A DNA stretch of 20,169 nt, taken from positions 1 through 20,169 of IMG/VR virus record IMGVR_UViG_2695420632_000003, one strand, 5' to 3'. The notes under the pieces were generated by a model, which saw only the letters and a list, made by a program, of their open reading frames with translations, was not told where the DNA came from and ran no database searches. The first letter of the stretch is position 1, and each line of letters begins with the position of its first letter. The DNA comes from a virus. Lineage: Duplodnaviria; Heunggongvirae; Uroviricota; Caudoviricetes. Shown piece by piece: positions 6 through 19,241 of this stretch. Made by a program: the position numbers and the translations under genes.

Positions 6-215
6 ATGCAGGCTCTGTTACCGGCGATCGAAAAGGCGATGCCGCCTTTGCTGGTGGCCCGTATGCGCAGCCACAGTTCTGAATATTACCGTGAGATCGT
101 CGAACGGAGGGATCGGCTGGTGAAGGATGTCGATGATTTTGTTGCGTCAGCGGTTGTTTTGTATGACCAGATGAATCGCGGCGGCCCGGCAGGGAATGCT
201 GTGGTGATGCACTAA
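6..215 (+). CDS. Hypothetical early-region protein, possibly the 3' part of a gene starting upstream of the window
   Basis: Open frame from the window edge (no in-frame stop in nt 3-5); stop at 213-215; lies immediately upstream of the replication initiator. No recognisable motif. Confidence 0.3.
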   Translation: MQALLPAIEKAMPPLLVARMRSHSSEYYREIVERRDRLVKDVDDFVASAVVLYDQMNRGGPAGNAVVMH

Positions 216-3434: not shown

Positions 3435-3738
3435 AATTAAAGAAATACCAGTAGTACGTGATGAATATGGCTGCTGGACGCATCCTGAATATGAAAAATT
3501 CTGTGACGGTCGGGAATATATTTCAACGGAAGAGTTTAACGCCTGGATGGAGGAAAATAATCTTCAATACGTCCTCTGCTTCAGAGATGAAGGATGTGCT
3601 GACCTTGATGCGTGTGATGCTGATATTTCTGCATGGGAACCGGAACGACCAGAGGGCAATGGATGGTTTATTGGTTCAATACATGACACCGAAGATGGCC
3701 CGGTTTGTGTATGGCTGAGAAATAAGGCCGAAGCATAA
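3427..3738 (+). CDS. Hypothetical phage protein (Cys/acidic-rich)
   Basis: ATG 3427 with GGGAGAACAG upstream, overlaps the previous gene end by 8 nt (translational coupling); 103 aa. Confidence 0.45.
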   Translation: MNEIKEIPVVRDEYGCWTHPEYEKFCDGREYISTEEFNAWMEENNLQYVLCFRDEGCADLDACDADISAWEPERPEGNGWFIGSIHDTEDGPVCVWLRNKAEA

Positions 3739-8195: not shown

Positions 8196-8576
8196 ATGAC
8201 TGAACGCATAGAATTTGTTTTGCCTTACCCGCCAACGGTGAACACTTACTGGCGACGCCGTGGCAGCACATATTTTATCTCGGAGGAGGGAAAGCGTTAT
8301 CGCCGGGCTGTGGCGCTTATTGTTCGCCAGCAGCGGCTGAAATTAAGCCTGTCCGGAAGGCTGGCGATAAAGGTGATTGCAGAGCCACCGGATAAGCGTC
8401 GTCGCGACCTGGACAATATCCTGAAAGCACCGCTGGATGCGCTGACGCATGCGGGAGTGTTAATGGACGATGAGCAGTTTGATGAAATCAATATCGTTCG
8501 TGGTCAGCCAGTATCTGGTGGACGTATGGGGGTGAAGATTTACCCCATAATGCATGAAGAGCAGGTCAAAAAATGA
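8196..8576 (+). CDS. rusA: RusA-family Holliday junction resolvase
   Basis: Translation contains DKRRRDLDNILKAPLDALTHAGVLMDDEQ, matching the RusA catalytic region (DxRRRDLDN); typical nin-region position just upstream of Q. Confidence 0.85.
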   Translation: MTERIEFVLPYPPTVNTYWRRRGSTYFISEEGKRYRRAVALIVRQQRLKLSLSGRLAIKVIAEPPDKRRRDLDNILKAPLDALTHAGVLMDDEQFDEINIVRGQPVSGGRMGVKIYPIMHEEQVKK

Positions 8577-9394
8577 AACTGGAAGATTTACCGAAATACT
8601 ACTCCCCAAAATCCCCTGGCCTGACCGATGCATCGGCCTCAACGTCAAAAGATGCGCTGAGTATCACTGATGTGATGGCCGCGCAGGGCATGACACAGAA
8701 TCGGGCTGAGATGGGGTTTTCTGCGTTCCTGGGGAAAATGGGCATCAGTATGAATGACAGGGCGCGGGCAACAGAATTACTGGCAGATTATGCACTCAGT
8801 CGGTGCGATCGTGTGGCGGCGTTGAGAAAACTTCCGGCAGAAATAAAACCGGTAGTGATGCGCATTATGGCTTCGTATGCGTTTGAAGATTATGCCCGTA
8901 GCGCGGCGAGCAAAAAACAGTGCCCCTGCTGTCACGGAAAAAAATTTATTGAAAGCGAGGTTTTTACAAACAAGATCCAGTATCCGGATGGTAAGCCACC
9001 AGTGTGGGCAAAGTGCACAAAAGGCGTGTATCCGTCTTACTGGGAAGAATGGAAAAAAGTCAGGGAGGTGGTAAAAGTTGCCTGTCCGGAGTGTGGCGGA
9101 AAGGGTGAGGTTTCCACCGCCTGTAAGGATTGCCGTGGGCGTGGTGTCGCCATTCATCGTGAAGAGTCGGTAAAACGTGGTATGCCTGTTATCAGAGATT
9201 GCCAGCGTTGTGGTGGTCGTGGCTGTGAAAGGCTGCCATCAACGGAGGCATTTAATGCCATATGCAAAGTGACGAGTGCTATCACGCTTGATACGTGGAA
9301 AAAATCAGTGAAACGCTTTTACGATACGTTGGTGGTTCGGTTTGACATTGAAGAGGCATGGGCGGAGCGGCAGTTAAAGAGGGTAACGCGATAG
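8573..9394 (+). CDS. Late-gene antiterminator Q-like protein with four CxxCxGxG zinc-finger-like repeats
   Basis: Position between rusA and a promoter/terminator pair; start overlaps the rusA stop (ATGA); repeats CPCCHGKK, CPECGGKG, CKDCRGRG, CQRCGGRG. Functional call is mainly by synteny. Confidence 0.6.
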   Translation: MKLEDLPKYYSPKSPGLTDASASTSKDALSITDVMAAQGMTQNRAEMGFSAFLGKMGISMNDRARATELLADYALSRCDRVAALRKLPAEIKPVVMRIMASYAFEDYARSAASKKQCPCCHGKKFIESEVFTNKIQYPDGKPPVWAKCTKGVYPSYWEEWKKVREVVKVACPECGGKGEVSTACKDCRGRGVAIHREESVKRGMPVIRDCQRCGGRGCERLPSTEAFNAICKVTSAITLDTWKKSVKRFYDTLVVRFDIEEAWAERQLKRVTR

Positions 9395-9475: not shown

Positions 9476-9498
9476 CCCCGCCGCCTGGCGGGTTTTTT
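9476..9498 (+). terminator. Intrinsic terminator (candidate tR')
   Basis: CCCGCC-GCCT-GGCGGG hairpin followed by TTTTTT. Confidence 0.55.
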
Positions 9499-9968: not shown

Positions 9969-11018
9969 ATGCTTAATACTGTAAAAATATCCAGTTGTGA
10001 GTTAATCAACGCCGACTGCCTGGAATTTATCCGGTCGTTACCCGAAAATTCTGTTGACCTGATAGTCACGGACCCGCCGTACTTTAAAGTGAAGCCTGAG
10101 GGCTGGGATAACCAGTGGAAGGGCGACGATGATTACCTGAAGTGGCTGGACCAGTGTCTGGCGCAGTTCTGGCGGGTGCTGAAACCTGTCGGAAGTCTTT
10201 ACCTGTTCTGTGGTCATCGCCTGGCATCTGATATCGAAATCATGATGCGTGAACGCTTCAGTGTGCTGAACCATATTATCTGGGCGAAGCCGTCCGGACG
10301 CTGGAACGGATGCAACAAGGAAAGCCTGCGGGCGTATTTCCCCGCCACAGAGCGCATTCTGTTCGCGGAACATTATCAGGGGCCGTATCGTCCGAAAGAT
10401 GCCGGGTATGCGGCGAAGGGCAGTGCACTGAAACAGCATGTGATGGCCCCGCTGATTTCTTACTTTCGTGATGCGCGCGCGGCCCTGGGGATAACGGCAA
10501 AACAGATTGCAGATGCCACAGGAAAGAAAAACATGGTGTCGCACTGGTTCAGTGCCAGTCAGTGGCAGCTACCGAACGAAAGCGATTATCTGAAATTACA
10601 GTCGCTGTTTGCCCGGGTGGCAGAAGAGAAACATCAGCGCGGTGAACTGGAAAAGCCCCACCACCAGCTGGTGGATACGTATACGTCACTGAACCGGCAG
10701 TATGTGGAGCTGCAGAGTGAATATAAGCATCTGCGGCGGTATTTTGGTGTGACGGCGCAGGTGCCGTACACGGATGTGTGGACACATAAACCGGTGCAGT
10801 TCTATCCCGGGAAACATCCGTGCGAAAAACCGGCAGAAATGCTGCAGCAGATAATCAGCGCAAGCAGTCGTCCGGGAGACCAGGTTGCAGATTTTTTTAT
10901 GGGCTCAGGTTCAACGGTAAAAGCGGCACTGGCGCTCGGGCGTCGTGCGATTGGCGTTGAACTGGAGACCGGACGTTTTGAGCAGACAGTCAGGGAAGTT
11001 CAGGATTTAATCGTTTGA
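9969..11018 (+). CDS. DNA methyltransferase, beta-class amino-MTase (N6-adenine or N4-cytosine), apparently orphan
   Basis: Catalytic DPPY motif near the N-terminus (LIVTDPPYF) and SAM-binding FxGxG near the C-terminus (DFFMGSGST): motif order IV then I. No adjacent restriction endonuclease candidate. Confidence 0.8.
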   Translation: MLNTVKISSCELINADCLEFIRSLPENSVDLIVTDPPYFKVKPEGWDNQWKGDDDYLKWLDQCLAQFWRVLKPVGSLYLFCGHRLASDIEIMMRERFSVLNHIIWAKPSGRWNGCNKESLRAYFPATERILFAEHYQGPYRPKDAGYAAKGSALKQHVMAPLISYFRDARAALGITAKQIADATGKKNMVSHWFSASQWQLPNESDYLKLQSLFARVAEEKHQRGELEKPHHQLVDTYTSLNRQYVELQSEYKHLRRYFGVTAQVPYTDVWTHKPVQFYPGKHPCEKPAEMLQQIISASSRPGDQVADFFMGSGSTVKAALALGRRAIGVELETGRFEQTVREVQDLIV

Positions 11019-11067: not shown

Positions 11068-11143
11068 GGCCCTTTAGCTCAGTGGTGAGAGCGAGCGACT
11101 CATAATCGCCAGGTCGCTGGTTCAAATCCAGCAAGGGCCACCA
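11068..11143 (+). tRNA. ileZ: tRNA with CAT anticodon, ileX/ileZ-like (tRNA-Ile2, lysidine type) rather than tRNA-Met
   Basis: 76 nt, cloverleaf folded by hand: acceptor GGCCCTT/AAGGGCC, anticodon loop CTCATAA, T-loop TTCAAAT, encoded CCA; close to E. coli ileX as I recall it. Confidence 0.8.
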
Positions 11144-11150
11144 TCACATA

Positions 11151-11227
11151 CCGCCATTAGCTCATCGGGATAGAGCGCCAGCCTTCGAAGCTGGCTGCGC
11201 GGGGTTCAAGTCCCCGATGGCGGTCCA
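11151..11227 (+). tRNA. argN: tRNA-Arg (anticodon TCG)
   Basis: 77 nt; acceptor CCGCCAT/ATGGCGG, D-stem GCTC/GAGC, anticodon loop CTTCGAA, T-arm CGGGG-TTCAAGT-CCCCG, encoded CCA. Confidence 0.75.
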
Positions 11228-11240
11228 TTATCTGCATCAT

Positions 11241-11317
11241 GCGTTGTTAGCTCAGCCGGACAGAGCAATTGCCTTCTAAGCAATCGGTCACTGGTTCGAA
11301 TCCAGTACAGCGCGCCA
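11241..11317 (+). tRNA. argO: tRNA-Arg (anticodon TCT, decodes AGA/AGG)
   Basis: 77 nt; acceptor GCGTTGT/ACAGCGC, anticodon loop CTTCTAA, T-arm ACTGG-TTCGAAT-CCAGT, encoded CCA. Confidence 0.8.
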
Positions 11318-11424
11318 TATTCATTCTTCCAGATTCCTTTCGGCAGAGCCTTATACTGAAATATACCTGGCTCAGGATATTGTTGAAAATATTATATGTT
11401 TGTCAAAAATAAAAGTTCTGTTAA

Positions 11425-11781
11425 GTGTTGATTGAGTGTTTGTTATACGGTCTAATGGTTTTTTCAGCATTAAATATTTATCATTCATATGGTGTGGGTA
11501 GAGTGAATATTGATGAGGCGTCGGGGTGTTTCATCCTTAGGCAGCGTATTGATATAGTCAATGCAGAACGAGCAAAGGCCTTCAGCCGTTTGACAGTTTT
11601 GTTCTGTACTCCTGATCGTCTTTCGGGAAGAGACGTTATTATTCTGAATAGTGATGCTATACAGAGGGTTTGCGATGAGTTCATGGTGGCTAATTCAGAA
11701 TTATTTGCTCTTGTTCAGGAGTACAACAGAATAGCCAGGACCTGTGGTATGGATGAACTTCGGATTACTCATCTGGGGTAG
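11425..11781 (+). CDS. Uncharacterized cargo ORF in the stx-equivalent slot (93-118 aa depending on start)
   Basis: Only long + ORF in the AT-rich segment; frame opens at GTG 11425; alternative GTG 11503 has a GGTAGAG SD-like sequence. Rich in AGA/AGG/ATA codons. No recognisable motif. Confidence 0.4.
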   Translation: MLIECLLYGLMVFSALNIYHSYGVGRVNIDEASGCFILRQRIDIVNAERAKAFSRLTVLFCTPDRLSGRDVIILNSDAIQRVCDEFMVANSELFALVQEYNRIARTCGMDELRITHLG

Positions 11782-12172
11782 ATACATATCTGGATTATCA
11801 CCGGTTACGGTAAAAAGTGATTGCTTACTGTTTTTGTGAATGGCATTGCAGCAGCCGGATAATGTCAGTGCTGGCTGACGGTGTGCTGGTGGCGGGTGTG
11901 GTGGTTGCTGCTTTCCCGTTGCTGAAAAAGAAAACGCCAGACTGTTAGCCGGGTATCAGTTAGCGGGAGAAATTTTTAAATACTTCACAATTCAGGCGGT
12001 TGACTGTTGTCTGGTTTGCGGGGAGTTTGTTAAAAGAAACTGGCATGGTGAATCCCCCTGTGCGGAGGGGCAATCAGCGAGTAGGTATATGGGATAATCG
12101 CGGATTCAGGTGCTGGTACTGAATTCACCGGGAGGCACCCGGCACCATGCAATGGCACATAGCGCCACTCTC

Positions 12173-12200
12173 CAGCCCCTCTCCGGAGGGGCTGTTTATA
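12173..12200 (+). terminator. Strong intrinsic terminator (+ strand) inside the cargo segment
   Basis: 9-bp GC-rich stem CAGCCCCTC / GAGGGGCTG with UCCG tetraloop, followed by TTTATATTGATTTT. Confidence 0.6.
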
Positions 12201-12228
12201 TTGATTTTGTCAGATGTGAGTAAACTCC

Positions 12229-12564
12229 TTATGGACTTTGTTGTTTTAGCCCATAAGGACATATTTGCAGAGTGCAACGGTTATTAAAGCATTCATTCAA
12301 TACGTTATCTGTATTTGTAGGGCATTCCTGGCTGTTTTTGATTAAATTCCAGAATGTTTTATTGAATGGTACTACGTTGTAAATGGTTACAGGCAGCACT
12401 TTGTTATTGAGCATGATGCCTGTGTGAGTCAGTGTAAATATACTTTCAGGAGGTAAGAAAGCATCCGATTGATACCAGATTATTAATTTTATTTTACTCC
12501 ATATGACTGAAAAAGATATTCCGCATGATGGCTGGATAACTGTATCAATCACAATCCACTTCAT
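12229..12564 (-). CDS. Uncharacterized Cys-rich 111-aa cargo ORF, antisense to the phage late transcript
   Basis: Long ORF in ~35% GC (stop-rich) DNA; AAGGAA SD 5 nt before ATG 12564; sigma70-like promoter on the minus strand around 12610-12650 (TTTACA ... TATACT). Confidence 0.45.
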
Positions 12565-12809: not shown

Positions 12810-14678
12810 ATGGTGGAAAGAACCATGGCATTTAAACACTATGATGTTGTCAGGGCGGCGTCGCCGTCAGATCTTGCGGAAAAGCTGACACATAAACTGA
12901 AAGAGGGCTGGCAGCCGTTTGGTAGTCCGGTGGCCATAACCCCTTATACCCTGATGCAGGCGATTGCAGCAGAAGGTGATGTGGTCGTCAGTGGTGCAAC
13001 TGAGCCGGAGTGGTACTACGTCATCGTACTGGCCGGGCAGTCCAATGCCATGGCTTACGGTGAAGGGCTTCCGCTTCCGGATTCATACGATGCGCCCCAT
13101 CCGCGCATTAAGCAACTGGCCCGTCGTAACACAGTGACTCCCGGTGGTGAAGTATGCGTATTTAACGACATCATTCCTGCTGACCATTGTCTGCATGATG
13201 TTCAGGATATGAGTACGATTAACCATCCCCGGGCTGACCTGAGCAAAGGGCAGTACGGCTGTGTCGGCCAGGGCTTACATATTGCCAAAAAACTGCTTCC
13301 GTATATCCCTAATAATGCGGGGATCCTGCTGGTACCATGCTGTCGTGGTGGTTCGGCATTCACCCAGGGCACGGAGGGGACATTCAGCGAGTCCACGGGG
13401 GCCAGTCAGGATTCGGCTCGCTGGGGAGTGGGTAAGCCGTTATATCAGGATCTGCTTTTCCGCACGAAGGCAGCATTGCAGAAAAACCCGAAAAACGTTT
13501 TGCTGGCGATATGCTGGATGCAGGGGGAATTCGATATGACGAATGCCAGTTACGCCCAGCAGCCAGCAGCATTTCTTGCAATGGTACAGCAGTTCCGTGC
13601 TGACCTTGCCGGGCTGGCAGCGCAGTGTCACGGTGGAAGTCCGGCATCAGTCCCCTGGATTTGTGGCGACACGACATACGCGTGGAAACAAGAACACGGT
13701 ACGCAATATGAAGTGGTATATGGTGCATATAAAGGTAAAGAATCCCAGCAGATTTATTTTGTTCCCTTTATGACCGATGGTAGCGGAGTTAATACACCGA
13801 CAAACAACCCGTCAGAAGATCCTGATATTGCCGGGTCTGGTTATTACGGTTCGGCATCCCGAACGAACAAAAACTGGGTATCATCAAATCGCCCGACGCA
13901 TTTCAGCTCATGGGCGCGTCGTGGCATTATTCCCGATCGTATGGCAACTGCTATTCTGAACGTAGCCGGGCGCACCTCAGCCTTCATCAGTGGTAAGGCA
14001 CCGGAAATCAAACCCTCGCCCGGCGGCGACACGCCATCGGGTCCGTCTGCAGATACGTCCGTTCGCACAATCTCCCTGCTGCCGACAGCCGGAGAGGCTG
14101 CTGCGCAGGGCTGGACCATCACCGGCGGCAGTGTTGCGCTGGAAGATGGTGTGTTTAAGGTTACCAAGCAGAGCAATAAAACCTGGTCCCTGATGCATCC
14201 GGTGGATGACGCAGTCTCCCTGCTGACACGGGGTGGCAGACTGAGCTGTAAGTTTCGACTGTCAGGCGCACTGACCAACAACCAGTTCGGTCTGGGAATT
14301 TATCTGTATACCGATGTAGCGTTACCTGACGTCGTGGCGATGACCGGGACTGGTAACCCGTTCCTGATGTCGTTCTTCACCCAGACCACAGACGGCAAAC
14401 TGAATCTGATGCATCACAAGAAAGCCGGAAACACAAAGTTGGGCGAGTTCGGGAATTACAGTAACGACTGGCAGACGCTGGAGCTGGTGTTCACCGCCGG
14501 CAGTGCCACGGTTACTCCGAAACTGAATGGAGTGGCTGGCCCGGCATTCCAGGTTATAAAAGACAGTCTGACACTGGGACTGAATGCGCTGACGCTGACG
14601 GATATTACCAAAAATGCAGCGTATGGCGTTGAGATAGAAAGTCTGGTGCTGGAGATAAATGCACCGGCATCATCATAA
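12810..14678 (+). CDS. nanS: NanS-p-like sialate 9-O-acetylesterase (SGNH/SASA hydrolase domain, N-terminal DUF1737-like region)
   Basis: GQSN motif (VLAGQSNAMAYGEG) of SGNH esterases; size and location (downstream of the tRNA triplet, upstream of S) match the yjhS/nanS-like gene of Stx prophages. True start may be ATG 12825 (MAFKHYDV..., SD GGTGGA). Confidence 0.75.
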   Translation: MVERTMAFKHYDVVRAASPSDLAEKLTHKLKEGWQPFGSPVAITPYTLMQAIAAEGDVVVSGATEPEWYYVIVLAGQSNAMAYGEGLPLPDSYDAPHPRIKQLARRNTVTPGGEVCVFNDIIPADHCLHDVQDMSTINHPRADLSKGQYGCVGQGLHIAKKLLPYIPNNAGILLVPCCRGGSAFTQGTEGTFSESTGASQDSARWGVGKPLYQDLLFRTKAALQKNPKNVLLAICWMQGEFDMTNASYAQQPAAFLAMVQQFRADLAGLAAQCHGGSPASVPWICGDTTYAWKQEHGTQYEVVYGAYKGKESQQIYFVPFMTDGSGVNTPTNNPSEDPDIAGSGYYGSASRTNKNWVSSNRPTHFSSWARRGIIPDRMATAILNVAGRTSAFISGKAPEIKPSPGGDTPSGPSADTSVRTISLLPTAGEAAAQGWTITGGSVALEDGVFKVTKQSNKTWSLMHPVDDAVSLLTRGGRLSCKFRLSGALTNNQFGLGIYLYTDVALPDVVAMTGTGNPFLMSFFTQTTDGKLNLMHHKKAGNTKLGEFGNYSNDWQTLELVFTAGSATVTPKLNGVAGPAFQVIKDSLTLGLNALTLTDITKNAAYGVEIESLVLEINAPASS

Positions 14679-14761
14679 AAAGTGAGCCAGTCAAATGGAA
14701 GGTATCGTTAAACTCACCGGTAGTGTCAGTGGGTCGTCTGAGATGCCTGCATGAGTTATCA

Positions 14762-14793
14762 GAGCCATCAGTACTTAACTGGTGGCTTTTTTT
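14762..14793 (+). terminator. Intrinsic terminator between nanS-p and the holin gene
   Basis: 9-bp stem AGCCATCAG / CTGGTGGCT (one G-U pair), loop TACTTAA, followed by TTTTTTT. Confidence 0.5.
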
Positions 14794-14828
14794 ATTGTTG
14801 TCAGCTTCCGGATAACGGGAGACGGGGT

Positions 14829-15044
14829 ATGTACCAGATGGAAAAAATCACAACAGGTGTGTCATACACCACGTCAGCGGTGGGAACGGGCTACTGGTTC
14901 CTGCAGTTGCTGGACAGGGTTTCCCCGTCTCAGTGGGCGGCAATAGGCGTGCTGGGGAGTCTGCTGTTTGGGCTGCTGACATATCTGACTAACCTGTATT
15001 TCAAAATCAGAGAGGACCGGCGTAAGGCGGCGCGGGGAGAGTAA
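14829..15044 (+). CDS. S: Class II holin, S21-like pinholin (71 aa) with dual-start motif
   Basis: Translation [71 protein letters not shown]: two TM segments, Met1/Met4 dual start, charged C-terminus; partnered with a SAR endolysin downstream. The ORF track extension to 14751 runs through the terminator and is rejected. Confidence 0.8.
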
Positions 15045-16307: not shown

Positions 16308-16745
16308 ATGAACACCAAAATCAAATATGGCCTGTCGGCTGCCGTTCTGGCGTTGATTGCCATCGGTGCGCCTGCGCCTGATATTCTCGACCAGTTTCTG
16401 GATGAAAAAGAAGGTAACCACACAACGGCATACCGTGATGGTGCGGGTATCTGGACCATCTGCCGCGGTGCCACAATGGTGGATGGTAAACCTGTTATTC
16501 CGGGCATGAAACTGTCGAAGGAAAAATGCGACCAGGTTAATGCCATTGAACGGGATAAGGCGCTGGCATGGGTGGAGCGCAATATTAAAGTTCCACTGAC
16601 CGAACCACAGAAAGCGGGTATAGCGTCATTCTGTCCCTATAACATTGGCCCCGGTAAGTGTTTCCCGTCGACGTTTTATAAGCGGCTGAATGCTGGTGAC
16701 CGCAGGGGAGCGTGTGAGGCGATTCGCTGGTGGATTAAGGACGGT
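16308..16745 (+). pseudogene. R: SAR endolysin R (R21-like lysozyme), N-terminal fragment interrupted by an IS21-family element
   Basis: N-terminal weakly hydrophobic Gly/Ala-rich SAR domain (GLSAAVLALIAIGAPA) and E-x8-D-x5-T catalytic triad (EGNHTTAYRDGAGIWT); reading frame broken after ...WWIKDG by the IS left end. Confidence 0.8.
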
Positions 16746-16938
16746 TGCGTATTTTCATGAAAGGAGATCACTCAATAACTTCCATCGAGATCGGGTAATA
16801 ACATTTGAACAGATCGCTGAATAACATCGATGGAGATCACTTTTGACTCATTTTGTTATTCAGTGATCTCCATCAATGTTATTGGAACTTCACAGGTGTG
16901 TTGATCTGTATCTTTTGCCATTCCGGTAAAGGATACCT

Positions 16939-18480
16939 ATGCCAACAGTTCCAATTTCTATGAGAAAACTTAAAGAAATTCTTAGGCTTAAATACGGTGT
17001 TGGACTCAGCCATCGACAAATTGGTCGTAGTCTTGCAATCTCCCCTTCCGTTGTATCCAGATATGCTAATCGGGCGGCTCAACTTGGCATAAAGCAGTGG
17101 CCCTTACCTACAGGATGGGATGATACAAAACTAAAACATGCGTTCCTTCAGACCCAGGTTAAGATGAAGAAGCACTCTCTGCCTGACTGGGCTACAGTAC
17201 ACCGGGAACTGCGTAATAAATGCGTGACGCTGCAGCTACTCTGGGAAGAATACTGTGAGCGTAATCCAGGCGGTTTTTACAGCTATAACCATTACTGCCG
17301 GATGTACCGTGAATGGCTCAAAACCACTTCACCATCAATGCGTCAGGTACATAAAGCTGGCGAAAAACTTTTCGTTGATTACTGTGGACCTACCGTTGGC
17401 GTTACCGACCCTGAGACCGGAGAAATAAGAACTGCTCAGGTCATCGTAGCTGTTCTCGGGGCATCAAGTTACACATGGGCAGAGGCCACCTGGTCTCAGC
17501 AGCTTGAAGACTGGGTGATGAGTCATGTTCGCTGCTTCCAGTGGTTGGGTGGCGTTCCTGAACTTGTTGTTCCGGACAATCTGAAAAGCGCCACATCCAG
17601 GGCATGTAAGTATGATCCTGACGTTAACCCTACCTACCAGCAGATGCTTGAGCATTATAATGTCGCAGTTTTGCCTGCGCGGCCACGTAAACCGAAAGAT
17701 AAAGCCAAAGCTGAAGTTGGCGTTCAGGTTGTTGAACGCTGGATCATGGCCCGAATCAGGCATGAGATCTTCTACAGCCTTGCATCGCTTAATCAGCGCA
17801 TTCGGGAGTTGCTGGAAAGACTGAATAACAAAATAATGCAGAAGTTGGGTTATTCACGTGCAGAACTCTTCATCCAGCTTGATAAACCCGCACTGAAGCC
17901 TCTTCCTGAAGCCAGTTACAGTTACACCCTGGTGAAGAAAGTCAGAGTTCATGCCGATTACCACGTGGAAATCGACAAACATTACTACTCGGTTCCATGT
18001 TCGCTGTTAGGCCAGCAACTGGAAGCATGGATCTCCGGAGAACTGGTAAGACTCTTCAATCAGGGGCAGGAGGTTGCTGTGCACCCGCGCAAGCGTACTT
18101 ATGGCTACAGTACCCGCAACGAGCACATGCCTGAAGCTCATCGACAGCATGCCACCTGGACGCCAGAGCGTCTTCTGGAATGGGCGGGGCACATAGGCAG
18201 TGAAACTCATAGTTATGTGCTTCATATACTGAACTCTCGTCCACATCCGGAACAAAGCTATCGCTTCTGCCTTGGACTCCTGAACCTTCATAAAAAATAC
18301 AGTAAAGCCAGACTTAATGCAGCATGTGCAAGAGCTCTGAAAACAAAGGTATGGCGTCTGTCAGGTATTAAATCGATCCTGGAAAAAGGTCTGGATAAAC
18401 AACCTGTTCAGGATCCAAAACCAGATCTGTTATCCACGATGGAACACGAAAACGTACGCGGCAGTGAGTATTACCACTGA
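16939..18480 (+). CDS. istA: IS21-family transposase IstA
   Basis: 513 aa with N-terminal HTH (LSHRQIGRSLAISPSVVSRY); followed 11 nt later by the IstB ATPase gene; AAAGGA SD. Confidence 0.85.
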   Translation: MPTVPISMRKLKEILRLKYGVGLSHRQIGRSLAISPSVVSRYANRAAQLGIKQWPLPTGWDDTKLKHAFLQTQVKMKKHSLPDWATVHRELRNKCVTLQLLWEEYCERNPGGFYSYNHYCRMYREWLKTTSPSMRQVHKAGEKLFVDYCGPTVGVTDPETGEIRTAQVIVAVLGASSYTWAEATWSQQLEDWVMSHVRCFQWLGGVPELVVPDNLKSATSRACKYDPDVNPTYQQMLEHYNVAVLPARPRKPKDKAKAEVGVQVVERWIMARIRHEIFYSLASLNQRIRELLERLNNKIMQKLGYSRAELFIQLDKPALKPLPEASYSYTLVKKVRVHADYHVEIDKHYYSVPCSLLGQQLEAWISGELVRLFNQGQEVAVHPRKRTYGYSTRNEHMPEAHRQHATWTPERLLEWAGHIGSETHSYVLHILNSRPHPEQSYRFCLGLLNLHKKYSKARLNAACARALKTKVWRLSGIKSILEKGLDKQPVQDPKPDLLSTMEHENVRGSEYYH

Positions 18481-18491
18481 TACGGGATCCA

Positions 18492-19241
18492 ATGATGAAT
18501 CATCTTTACGAACAACTGACCGCACTTAAACTCACCGGCTTCCGTGATGCGCTTAAAAAGCAACTTGCTCAGCCGGGCACATACCAGGAGCTGGGCTTCG
18601 AAGAACGCCTGTCATTACTGACAGCAGAAGAACTAACCTGCCGTGAAAACAGGAAGGCAGAGCGTCTGATCAAACATGCACGGTTCAGACTTAATGCTGA
18701 GTTATCAAAGCTGGATTATCGTAACAATAGAGGGCTGGACAGGGCCCTCATCCGTTCACTCAGTCAGGGAAACTGGTTAACCCTGAAACAAAATATTTTA
18801 CTGACCGGGGCCACCGGCAGCGGTAAAACGTTCCTGGCATGTGCACTTGGTCATAATGCCTGCCGACAGGGATACAAGGTCTACTATTATCGCCTTAAAG
18901 CGCTGATGGAACAGTGCTATCAGGGGCATGCTGATGGAAGATACAGCAAACTTTTGACCAGGCTGAATAATAGCGATCTGCTGCTTCTGGATGACTGGGG
19001 GCTGGAACCTCTCTCATCAGAACAGCGTAGCGACCTGCTGGAAATAGTGGATCTGATGTACCAACGAGGCTCAATCATCGTAGTGAGCCAGTTGCCGGTG
19101 GAAAACTGGTACAAAATGATCGGAGACTCCACACATGCGGATGCCATCCTAGATCGACTGGTTCATGGCAGTATCAAGATCGAACTTAAAGGAGAATCAA
19201 TGCGGAAAATACAATCTCCGTTGACCGAAGGAGATCAGTGA
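18492..19241 (+). CDS. istB: IS21-family helper ATPase IstB
   Basis: Walker A GATGSGKTFLA and Walker B LLLLDDWG; ~250 aa, typical IstB. Confidence 0.85.
   Translation: MMNHLYEQLTALKLTGFRDALKKQLAQPGTYQELGFEERLSLLTAEELTCRENRKAERLIKHARFRLNAELSKLDYRNNRGLDRALIRSLSQGNWLTLKQNILLTGATGSGKTFLACALGHNACRQGYKVYYYRLKALMEQCYQGHADGRYSKLLTRLNNSDLLLLDDWGLEPLSSEQRSDLLEIVDLMYQRGSIIVVSQLPVENWYKMIGDSTHADAILDRLVHGSIKIELKGESMRKIQSPLTEGDQ

Follow-up and report, generated by a model that had tools for sequence, protein, structure and literature searches.

Phage tRNA genes beside an open reading frame (ORF) rich in codons that are rare in Escherichia coli raise the question of whether the codons of the ORF are matched to these tRNAs, and whether such a match indicates an expressed gene. 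The case considered here is an ORF in a 20,169-nucleotide stretch of DNA (IMG/VR record IMGVR_UViG_2695420632_000003, hereafter the window) which originates from a lambdoid prophage of E. coli. The initial annotation placed the ORF at 11425-11781 on the + strand (GTG start, 118 sense codons, 357 nt) and described it as cargo enriched in exactly the codons decoded by three upstream tRNAs, a relationship that was taken as an argument for a real, expressed moron by analogy with the stx genes of Stx phages. The rare-codon proposal for stx beside phage tRNAs is said to go back to Plunkett and colleagues in 1999 and Schmidt and colleagues in 1997. The window had no full-length counterpart among the complete genomes of E. 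coli in RefSeq, where the best match covered 73% of it, and prophages in numerous strains, E. coli O104:H4 among them, were 100% identical to it over positions 11318-12300.

The ORF lies between the genes for the Q antiterminator (8573..9394; Pfam Antiterm, E=2e-49) and a P21-type holin (14751-15044; Pfam Phage_holin_2_1, E=2.3e-32) and on the same strand as both, the late-slot features listed here being on the + strand with an IraM-like gene (12229-12564) on the opposite strand. A terminator-like hairpin (9477-9492) is located just 3' of Q and is followed by a DNA methyltransferase gene (9969-11018) and the three tRNA genes, all of which were called by ARAGORN and matched by Rfam. These are a tRNA-Ile with a lysidine-type CAT anticodon that reads ATA (11068..11143, Rfam tRNA 72.5 bits), a tRNA-Arg with anticodon TCG that reads CGA and CGG (11151..11227, 58.4 bits) and a tRNA-Arg with anticodon TCT that reads AGA and AGG (11241..11317, 68 bits). 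PGAP labels a sequence identical to the CAT tRNA as tRNA-Ile. Downstream of the ORF are a DUF3927 or TciB-like small membrane-protein gene (11817..11948; Pfam PF13064, E=1.3e-26; phrog_1470; PGAP), the small RNA STnc100 identified by Rfam, whose 3' end is the hairpin at 12173-12194, and a SASA-family esterase gene (12810-14678). Rfam searches of the interval returned the three tRNAs and the downstream STnc100 only, and the ORF itself had no family match. The DUF3927 gene starts 35 nt past the stop codon of the ORF and the two may be co-transcribed. A relative of the ORF in Citrobacter also has a DUF3927 gene directly after it.

The codon counts in the initial annotation were exact, with 3 AGA, 3 AGG, 1 CGA, 1 CGG and 3 ATA codons making up 11 of the 118 codons in 11425-11781, and the anticodons CAT, TCG and TCT were confirmed by ARAGORN in genes 108-357 bp 5' of the ORF. 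The description of this usage as far above that typical of E. coli also held, as the density of 93 per 1000 was 6.8-fold the 13.7 per 1000 of a baseline of 45 core chromosomal genes from one E. coli genome (binomial P=8e-7). All five cognate codon types are thus present, and the ORF had the highest density of the about 30 ORFs in the window (93-109 per 1000), with 10 rare codons in the 92-codon core described below. Its ratio of observed to composition-expected rare codons (1.3-1.4) was likewise the window maximum, the window median being about 0.56, and its combined use of AGA and AGG was 3.6-fold the mean of the prophage (P=0.0065, uncorrected). These values would suit a model, as proposed for stx, in which codon usage in the ORF co-evolved with the three tRNAs or serves in regulation by them, and in which efficient translation would depend on the tRNAs that the phage supplies.

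Set against this model, the rare codons were not above chance for this DNA by any of three comparisons, namely with other frames, with base composition and with shuffled sequence, and in this respect the claim of enrichment failed. The same five triplets occurred 10, 7, 5, 17 and 5 times in the other five frames of the 357 nt, so that non-coding frames carried an equal density, the very outcome that the initial annotation had named as refuting its claim. The base frequencies of the ORF predicted 8.6 rare codons vs the 11 observed, and at least 11 were reached by shuffled versions of the ORF with a probability of 0.23 for mononucleotide and 0.235 for dinucleotide shuffles. The GC content was 0.39 over the ORF, within an AT-rich stretch of 0.39-0.44, vs 0.49 for the window. 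Since the density equals that of shuffled and non-coding DNA, it cannot serve as evidence that the ORF is expressed. The same caution concerns other loci, as richness in rare codons beside phage tRNA genes is no proof of expression when non-coding AT-rich frames look alike.

Rare-codon frequencies were also compared gene by gene across the window, with the genes for codon comparison picked by hand from the ORFs because the window had no full-length match in the complete RefSeq E. coli genomes. The other approximately 29 ORFs averaged 43.5 per 1000, and the excess of the ORF over them was 2.1-fold (P=0.014, uncorrected). Half of this excess was accounted for by the richness of the protein in arginine and isoleucine (11 of each). 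When synonymous codons were resampled with the protein held fixed and the prophage's own codon usage, 7.8 rare codons were expected (P=0.10), so that synonymous choice in the ORF was as in the rest of the prophage. Most genes of the window avoid the five triplets in frame, as the median ratio of about 0.56 shows. The ORF is the least codon-adapted gene of the window, showing no avoidance of rare codons and no enrichment in them, in contrast to the larger phage genes, which show codon adaptation. Selection against these codons may be modestly relaxed, the tRNAs being supplied in cis, which would weigh against our main view.

The linkage between the ORF and the tRNA array was examined in 59 related contigs. 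The distance from the end of tRNA-Arg(TCT) to a GTG codon at 11503 was 185 nt and was constant in 58 of the 59, while in the remaining contig (L069) ARAGORN read the anticodon CAT at the position of the TCT tRNA. This fixed distance would favor coupling between the ORF and the array. However, the copies of the window's own lineage (lineage A) were 98-99% identical, which indicates that the linkage reflects one inherited block rather than a repeated independent association. All three tRNAs were found in only 7 of the 59 contigs, and in 51 of these near-identical copies the TCG tRNA was not detected, yet the CGA and CGG codons were kept.

Three lineages of the ORF that share 68-72% DNA identity were distinguished in E. 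coli: lineage A, lineage B (L003), for which PGAP annotates the protein WP_001017777.1, and lineage C (L004). Sixteen positions held a rare codon in any of these lineages and a single one, the CGA at 11569-11571, was common to all three. Many of the other rare-codon differences were AAG/AGG-type changes at variable residues, and polymorphisms within lineage A included ATA to ATT at 11661 in 9 loci as well as AGG to AGA. Lineage B had no tRNA nearby and lineage C was located 2.2 kb from a two-tRNA (Ile/Arg) array. Relatives in Serratia, Salmonella, Morganella, Citrobacter and an E. coli plasmid were found near Gly(TCC), Thr(TGT) and Asn(GTT) tRNAs or near none, with rare-codon densities of 11 to 94 per 1000 that were unrelated to the adjoining tRNAs. 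Of 311 phage records that matched the queried tRNA-array region, in most cases over the tRNA genes only, a single one had the ORF, that of mEp460_ev081, the one isolated phage found to carry it, and the other 310 had stx or other genes in the slot. Searches of complete E. coli genomes gave 7595 matching places for the tRNA array, compared with 1479 for the ORF. By these sequence comparisons, codon-tRNA matching is not a property of the gene family, as neither the cognate codons nor the tRNA neighborhood was conserved.

The Stx phages share the tRNA array, which we take to be ileZ-argN-argO, and then diverge into stx. Their array was approximately 93% identical to that of the window, and stxAB occupies the same slot, directly 3' of tRNA-Arg(TCT) and 5' of the SASA-esterase and lysis genes. 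At 88 per 1000, rare codons in the stx2A gene of an Stx2 phage were about as dense as in the ORF, which would speak for a common tRNA relationship in this slot, but the 28 codons observed were at the composition expectation of 25.4 and stx2B had none of these codons. This suggests that a codon-tRNA match is weak evidence even in the Stx model case. The resemblance does not extend to the products, as the ORF encodes an unrelated 92-amino-acid helical hairpin and not an AB5 toxin. Taken with the chance-level density, the ordinary synonymous choice and the sparse conservation of rare-codon positions, these results make a specific coupling of the ORF to the three tRNAs unlikely. It is plausible that the tRNAs aid translation of prophage genes and other acquired genes in general, because usage of the five codons is approximately threefold higher in the window genes than in the core genes.

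A different connection to tRNAs was considered, in which the protein family would process, stabilize or shield phage tRNAs, or block host anticodon nucleases, irrespective of codon usage. Five of about ten independent contexts had a tRNA of any anticodon within 700 bp upstream, these being E. coli lineage A (Ile/Arg/Arg), Serratia (CAT, an unassigned tRNA and Gly-TCC), Salmonella (Thr-TGT and Gly-TCC), one Morganella locus (L093, Asn-GTT) and the E. coli plasmid (Thr-TGT), and two further contexts had a tRNA within 2.3 kb. If true, this reading would account for the recurrence of the family beside tRNAs in E. coli, Serratia, Salmonella, Morganella and the plasmid. However, little space separates Q from the holin gene, and many lambdoid phages are known to carry tRNA genes in this interval (PMC3636060), so that proximity would be expected by position alone. 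Lineage B, a second Morganella locus (L092) and Xenorhabdus had no tRNA nearby, the ORF was in only one of the 311 records with the array, isoelectric points (pI) in the family spanned 4.8 to 9.9, and the searches revealed no homology to RNA-binding proteins or nuclease inhibitors. We regard such a role as very unlikely, and the simplest explanation for the recurrence of the family behind tRNA arrays, whatever their specificity, is the short interval and the known habit of tRNAs of sitting in it.

Evidence that the ORF is a gene came from its pattern of change, its relatives and its predicted fold rather than from its codons, and it was on these grounds that the view of a real cargo gene stood while the rare-codon argument for it fell. 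In the 92-codon core, dN/dS was 0.24-0.28 between lineages A, B and C (Fisher P 3e-7 to 3e-6), with 40-43 differences at third positions vs 18-25 at positions 1 and 2, and the other two + frames had values of 0.83-1.28. The antisense frame that shares wobble positions with the ORF (dN/dS 0.25-0.37) was ruled out as coding by its stop codons. The frame of the ORF was open in all three lineages despite 28-32% DNA divergence, and the 357-nt frame was intact with no indels in 79 of 79 IMG/VR contigs that fully covered it. Similarity between lineages started a few bases 5' of GTG 11503 and faded within a few bases past the stop codon. Within lineage A the core varied at 7 of 279 sites, five of which were synonymous third positions, and was approximately 3 times less polymorphic than its flanks. 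These patterns establish the ORF as a real gene, conserved and under purifying selection for the protein that it encodes.

The same comparisons bear on where the coding region begins. The GTG at 11425 with which the frame was first drawn is replaced by GTA in 48 of the 76 near-identical loci. Polymorphism in the 78 nt that precede 11503 affected 6 of 78 sites, 4 of the 6 being non-synonymous, a rate that matches the 8 of 107 sites in the non-coding DNA further upstream. In lineage C the frame of this 5' extension was not preserved, and in lineage B the upstream sequence was largely unrelated and aligned only over approximately 30 nt directly 5' of the start codon. The GTG at 11503 was conserved in all three lineages and, of the candidate starts, had the strongest Shine-Dalgarno pairing, although this pairing was weak (-4.5 kcal/mol). 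The most likely coding region is thus 11503..11781 on the + strand (GTG start, 92 codons and a stop), and the 26 codons at 11425..11502 on the same strand are probably a 5' leader and not coding, as judged by polymorphism and lineage comparison, which would make the original frame too long at its 5' end. A 108-amino-acid form from the ATG at 11455, where the profile of PHROG 2873 begins, is possible.

PHROG 2873, to which the coding region belongs, is a catalogued phage family with no function attached, and residues 11-118 of the 118-residue frame matched positions 1-108 of its 108-position profile (E=1.7e-70, 235 bits). Twenty relatives were found among 1.84 billion representative proteins. 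A profile search returned 40 relatives from six genera, all within the Enterobacterales and all labelled "hypothetical", and none of the 40 had a Pfam domain. These included proteins of 91-110 amino acids in Citrobacter, Salmonella, Morganella, Serratia and Xenorhabdus, and the residues R23, P37, N64, Y74 and N75 were invariant in the family. The AlphaFold2 model of the 92-residue core had a mean pLDDT of 85, with two long helices (residues 3-35 and 50-81) and, between them, a short beta-hairpin containing a conserved TPDR motif. The product is most likely a 92-amino-acid soluble protein with a predicted two-helix hairpin fold.

Searches of the ORF against Pfam, NCBIfam and PADLOC gave no match, Foldseek comparisons with PDB and BFVD (viral models) returned only generic helical hairpins with none at E<=0.001, and no similarity to the neighboring IraM-like protein was found. 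Four chains of GapR, which like other UPF0335 (DUF2312) proteins is small, alpha-helical and of approximately 90 amino acids, headed the PDB sequence profile search. This kinship was rejected, as the E-values were 0.04-0.2 (best 0.043) and the alignments covered helix 1 only, which amounts to coiled-coil noise, and GapR/UPF0335 was also absent from a Pfam DUF2312 search of family members and from the Foldseek PDB list. An alternative in which the frame is open by chance, in AT-rich DNA between the tRNA array and the DUF3927 gene that possibly holds only regulatory or leader sequence, would agree with its uncalled status in lineage A, its rare-codon content at the non-coding expectation, the lack of a Pfam or NCBIfam match, and the uncertain start codon with its weak Shine-Dalgarno site, but is extremely unlikely given constraint confined to the ORF frame among the + frames, the PGAP annotation of lineage B, the intact frames, the absence of an Rfam family over the ORF, and relatives in six genera with conserved motifs and a confident predicted fold.

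In our assessment the ORF is very probably a genuine gene whose rare codons are a by-product of composition, with no specific adaptation to the tRNAs. Under this reading the gene (most likely 11503 to 11781) fills an accessory slot between the Q, methyltransferase and tRNA array genes and the lysis cassette, and its rare-codon content would result from AT-rich DNA (39-44% GC), a protein rich in arginine and isoleucine, and missing codon adaptation. The tRNAs and the ORF would be linked solely by joint inheritance as one nearly identical DNA module. The protein itself would bind a host or phage protein in late infection, which is a guess from its size and predicted fold.

Relatives in Serratia, Salmonella, Morganella and Citrobacter were on the same strand and between Q and a holin or lysozyme gene. 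Late, Q-dependent transcription of the ORF is expected from the position that it shares with stx, and would proceed with the late operon from a promoter downstream of Q, with Q antitermination carrying it past terminators, as position and orientation suggest and as is the case for stx in Stx phages. A promoter scan identified one 9-of-12 site at 11383-11410, and 6 such sites occurred in the region vs 5.4 by chance; the gene may still have its own weak promoter. No terminator was found between 11781 and 11817, the next being the hairpin at the end of STnc100.

Morons have reportedly been described, by Juhala and colleagues and by Hendrix and colleagues in 2000, as accessory genes inserted between conserved genes. 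They typically have their own promoter and terminator. The ORF is similar to lambdoid morons in being an AT-rich island that is present or absent among related phages in a known accessory slot, and in that the similarity between lineages stops at the limits of the gene. It differs from them in that promoter matches were not above chance and no terminator directly follows the gene. The designation as a moron was thus borne out for the variable AT-rich slot and not for a transcription unit of its own, and the ORF may simply be a late gene that points with the late operon. Its sequence context suggests an ordinary accessory late-region gene in a well-known slot. The gene is already catalogued and nothing points to a new kind of system, and the function of the ORF may deserve attention as its slot equals that of the Shiga toxin genes.

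The ORF region was present in 1312 of 5426 complete E. coli genomes, or about a quarter. PGAP called no gene here in any lineage-A RefSeq genome that was inspected, and the record of phage mEp460_ev081 carries the ORF unannotated, so that RefSeq omits a selected and conserved gene in the commonest of its lineages. A single locus from the genome-contig scan, labelled as a Bacillota metagenome-assembled genome, carried the E. coli lineage-B gene and is probably a mis-binned contig.

The 92-codon ORF at 11503-11781 (+ strand) is selected and conserved. Of 5426 complete E. coli genomes, 1312 carry its sequence, yet the ORF was left uncalled by RefSeq/PGAP in all genomes shown that carry lineage A, the window's own form. 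The lineage B copy, which is 72% identical, does have an annotation (WP_001017777.1). In the isolated phage mEp460_ev081 a short minus-strand CDS was annotated just upstream of the ORF, at approximately 11375-11491 in window coordinates, while the ORF itself was uncalled. A minus-strand ORF of 67 aa (11481-11684) also overlaps the gene in the window. The apparent dN/dS was low (0.25-0.37) for the antisense frame sharing the wobble positions of 11503-11781 as well, and a low ratio in an antisense frame with common wobble positions is a known artefact.

The three-tRNA array upstream of the gene was variable among related phages. The full array as found in the window was a minority form, present in 7 of 59 related viral contigs from IMG/VR (L007-L074), and the middle member, tRNA-Arg(TCG) at 11151-11227, was undetected in fifty-one of these. 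The corresponding DNA in these contigs (locus coordinates of approximately 3640-3738) has either diverged or degenerated, and phage mEp460 shows the same.

Relatives of the ORF located downstream of tRNA genes were also identified in Citrobacter, an E. coli plasmid, Morganella, Serratia and Salmonella (L087, L089-L091, L093-L095 and L097), where the upstream tRNAs differed in specificity from those of the window and included Thr-TGT, Asn-GTT and Gly-TCC, as well as a CAT tRNA with, after it, an unusual tRNA whose anticodon was called as two bases. The family member P0036 (91 aa) and the tRNA-Thr(TGT)-like sequence 580 bp upstream of it lie within 4347-5276 of contigs L089-L091, which are Rep3-type plasmid contigs; a K88-like fimbrial operon adjoins the locus, which looks like a phage-derived fragment transferred to a plasmid. 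A family protein was also encoded on a 2.7-kb contig labelled as a Bacillota bacterium MAG (L006, JAEWMQ010000075.1). Its first 30 residues and codon counts were the same as those of the E. coli lineage B gene, and the contig is probably a mis-binned enterobacterial phage sequence.

Codon adaptation differs sharply between the two Shiga toxin genes of phage VT2phi_272 (stx2AB, L098 4411-5651). The five rare codons AGA, AGG, CGA, CGG and ATA made up 28 of 319 codons in stx2A, fifteen of them ATA, a count close to the base-composition prediction, while none was found among the 89 codons of stx2B, where 8 were expected.

Downstream of the ORF, the interval 12014-12203 (+ strand) strongly matched the prophage-encoded small RNA STnc100 (Rfam RF02076, 132 bits, E=4e-30), with the hairpin at 12173-12194 as its terminator. 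A 2026 preprint (10.64898/2026.05.13.724894) links STnc100 with PasD, a name for small RNAs found in pathogenic E. coli. The STnc100 match is placed between the DUF3927 gene and an IraM-like anti-adapter gene (12229-12564, - strand; NCBIfam NF007393, E=6e-47). AT content in the region is highest where the IraM-like gene lies (GC 0.31-0.40); of the 13 Ile codons in this gene, 6 are ATA, and it contains a single Arg codon.

Further along, the region 16308-19241 includes a short lysozyme ORF of 150 aa (16308-16760) and, as its downstream neighbour, an IS21-family element encoding an IstA-like protein (16939-18480) and IstB (18492-19241). The lysis cassette is probably disrupted in this prophage.
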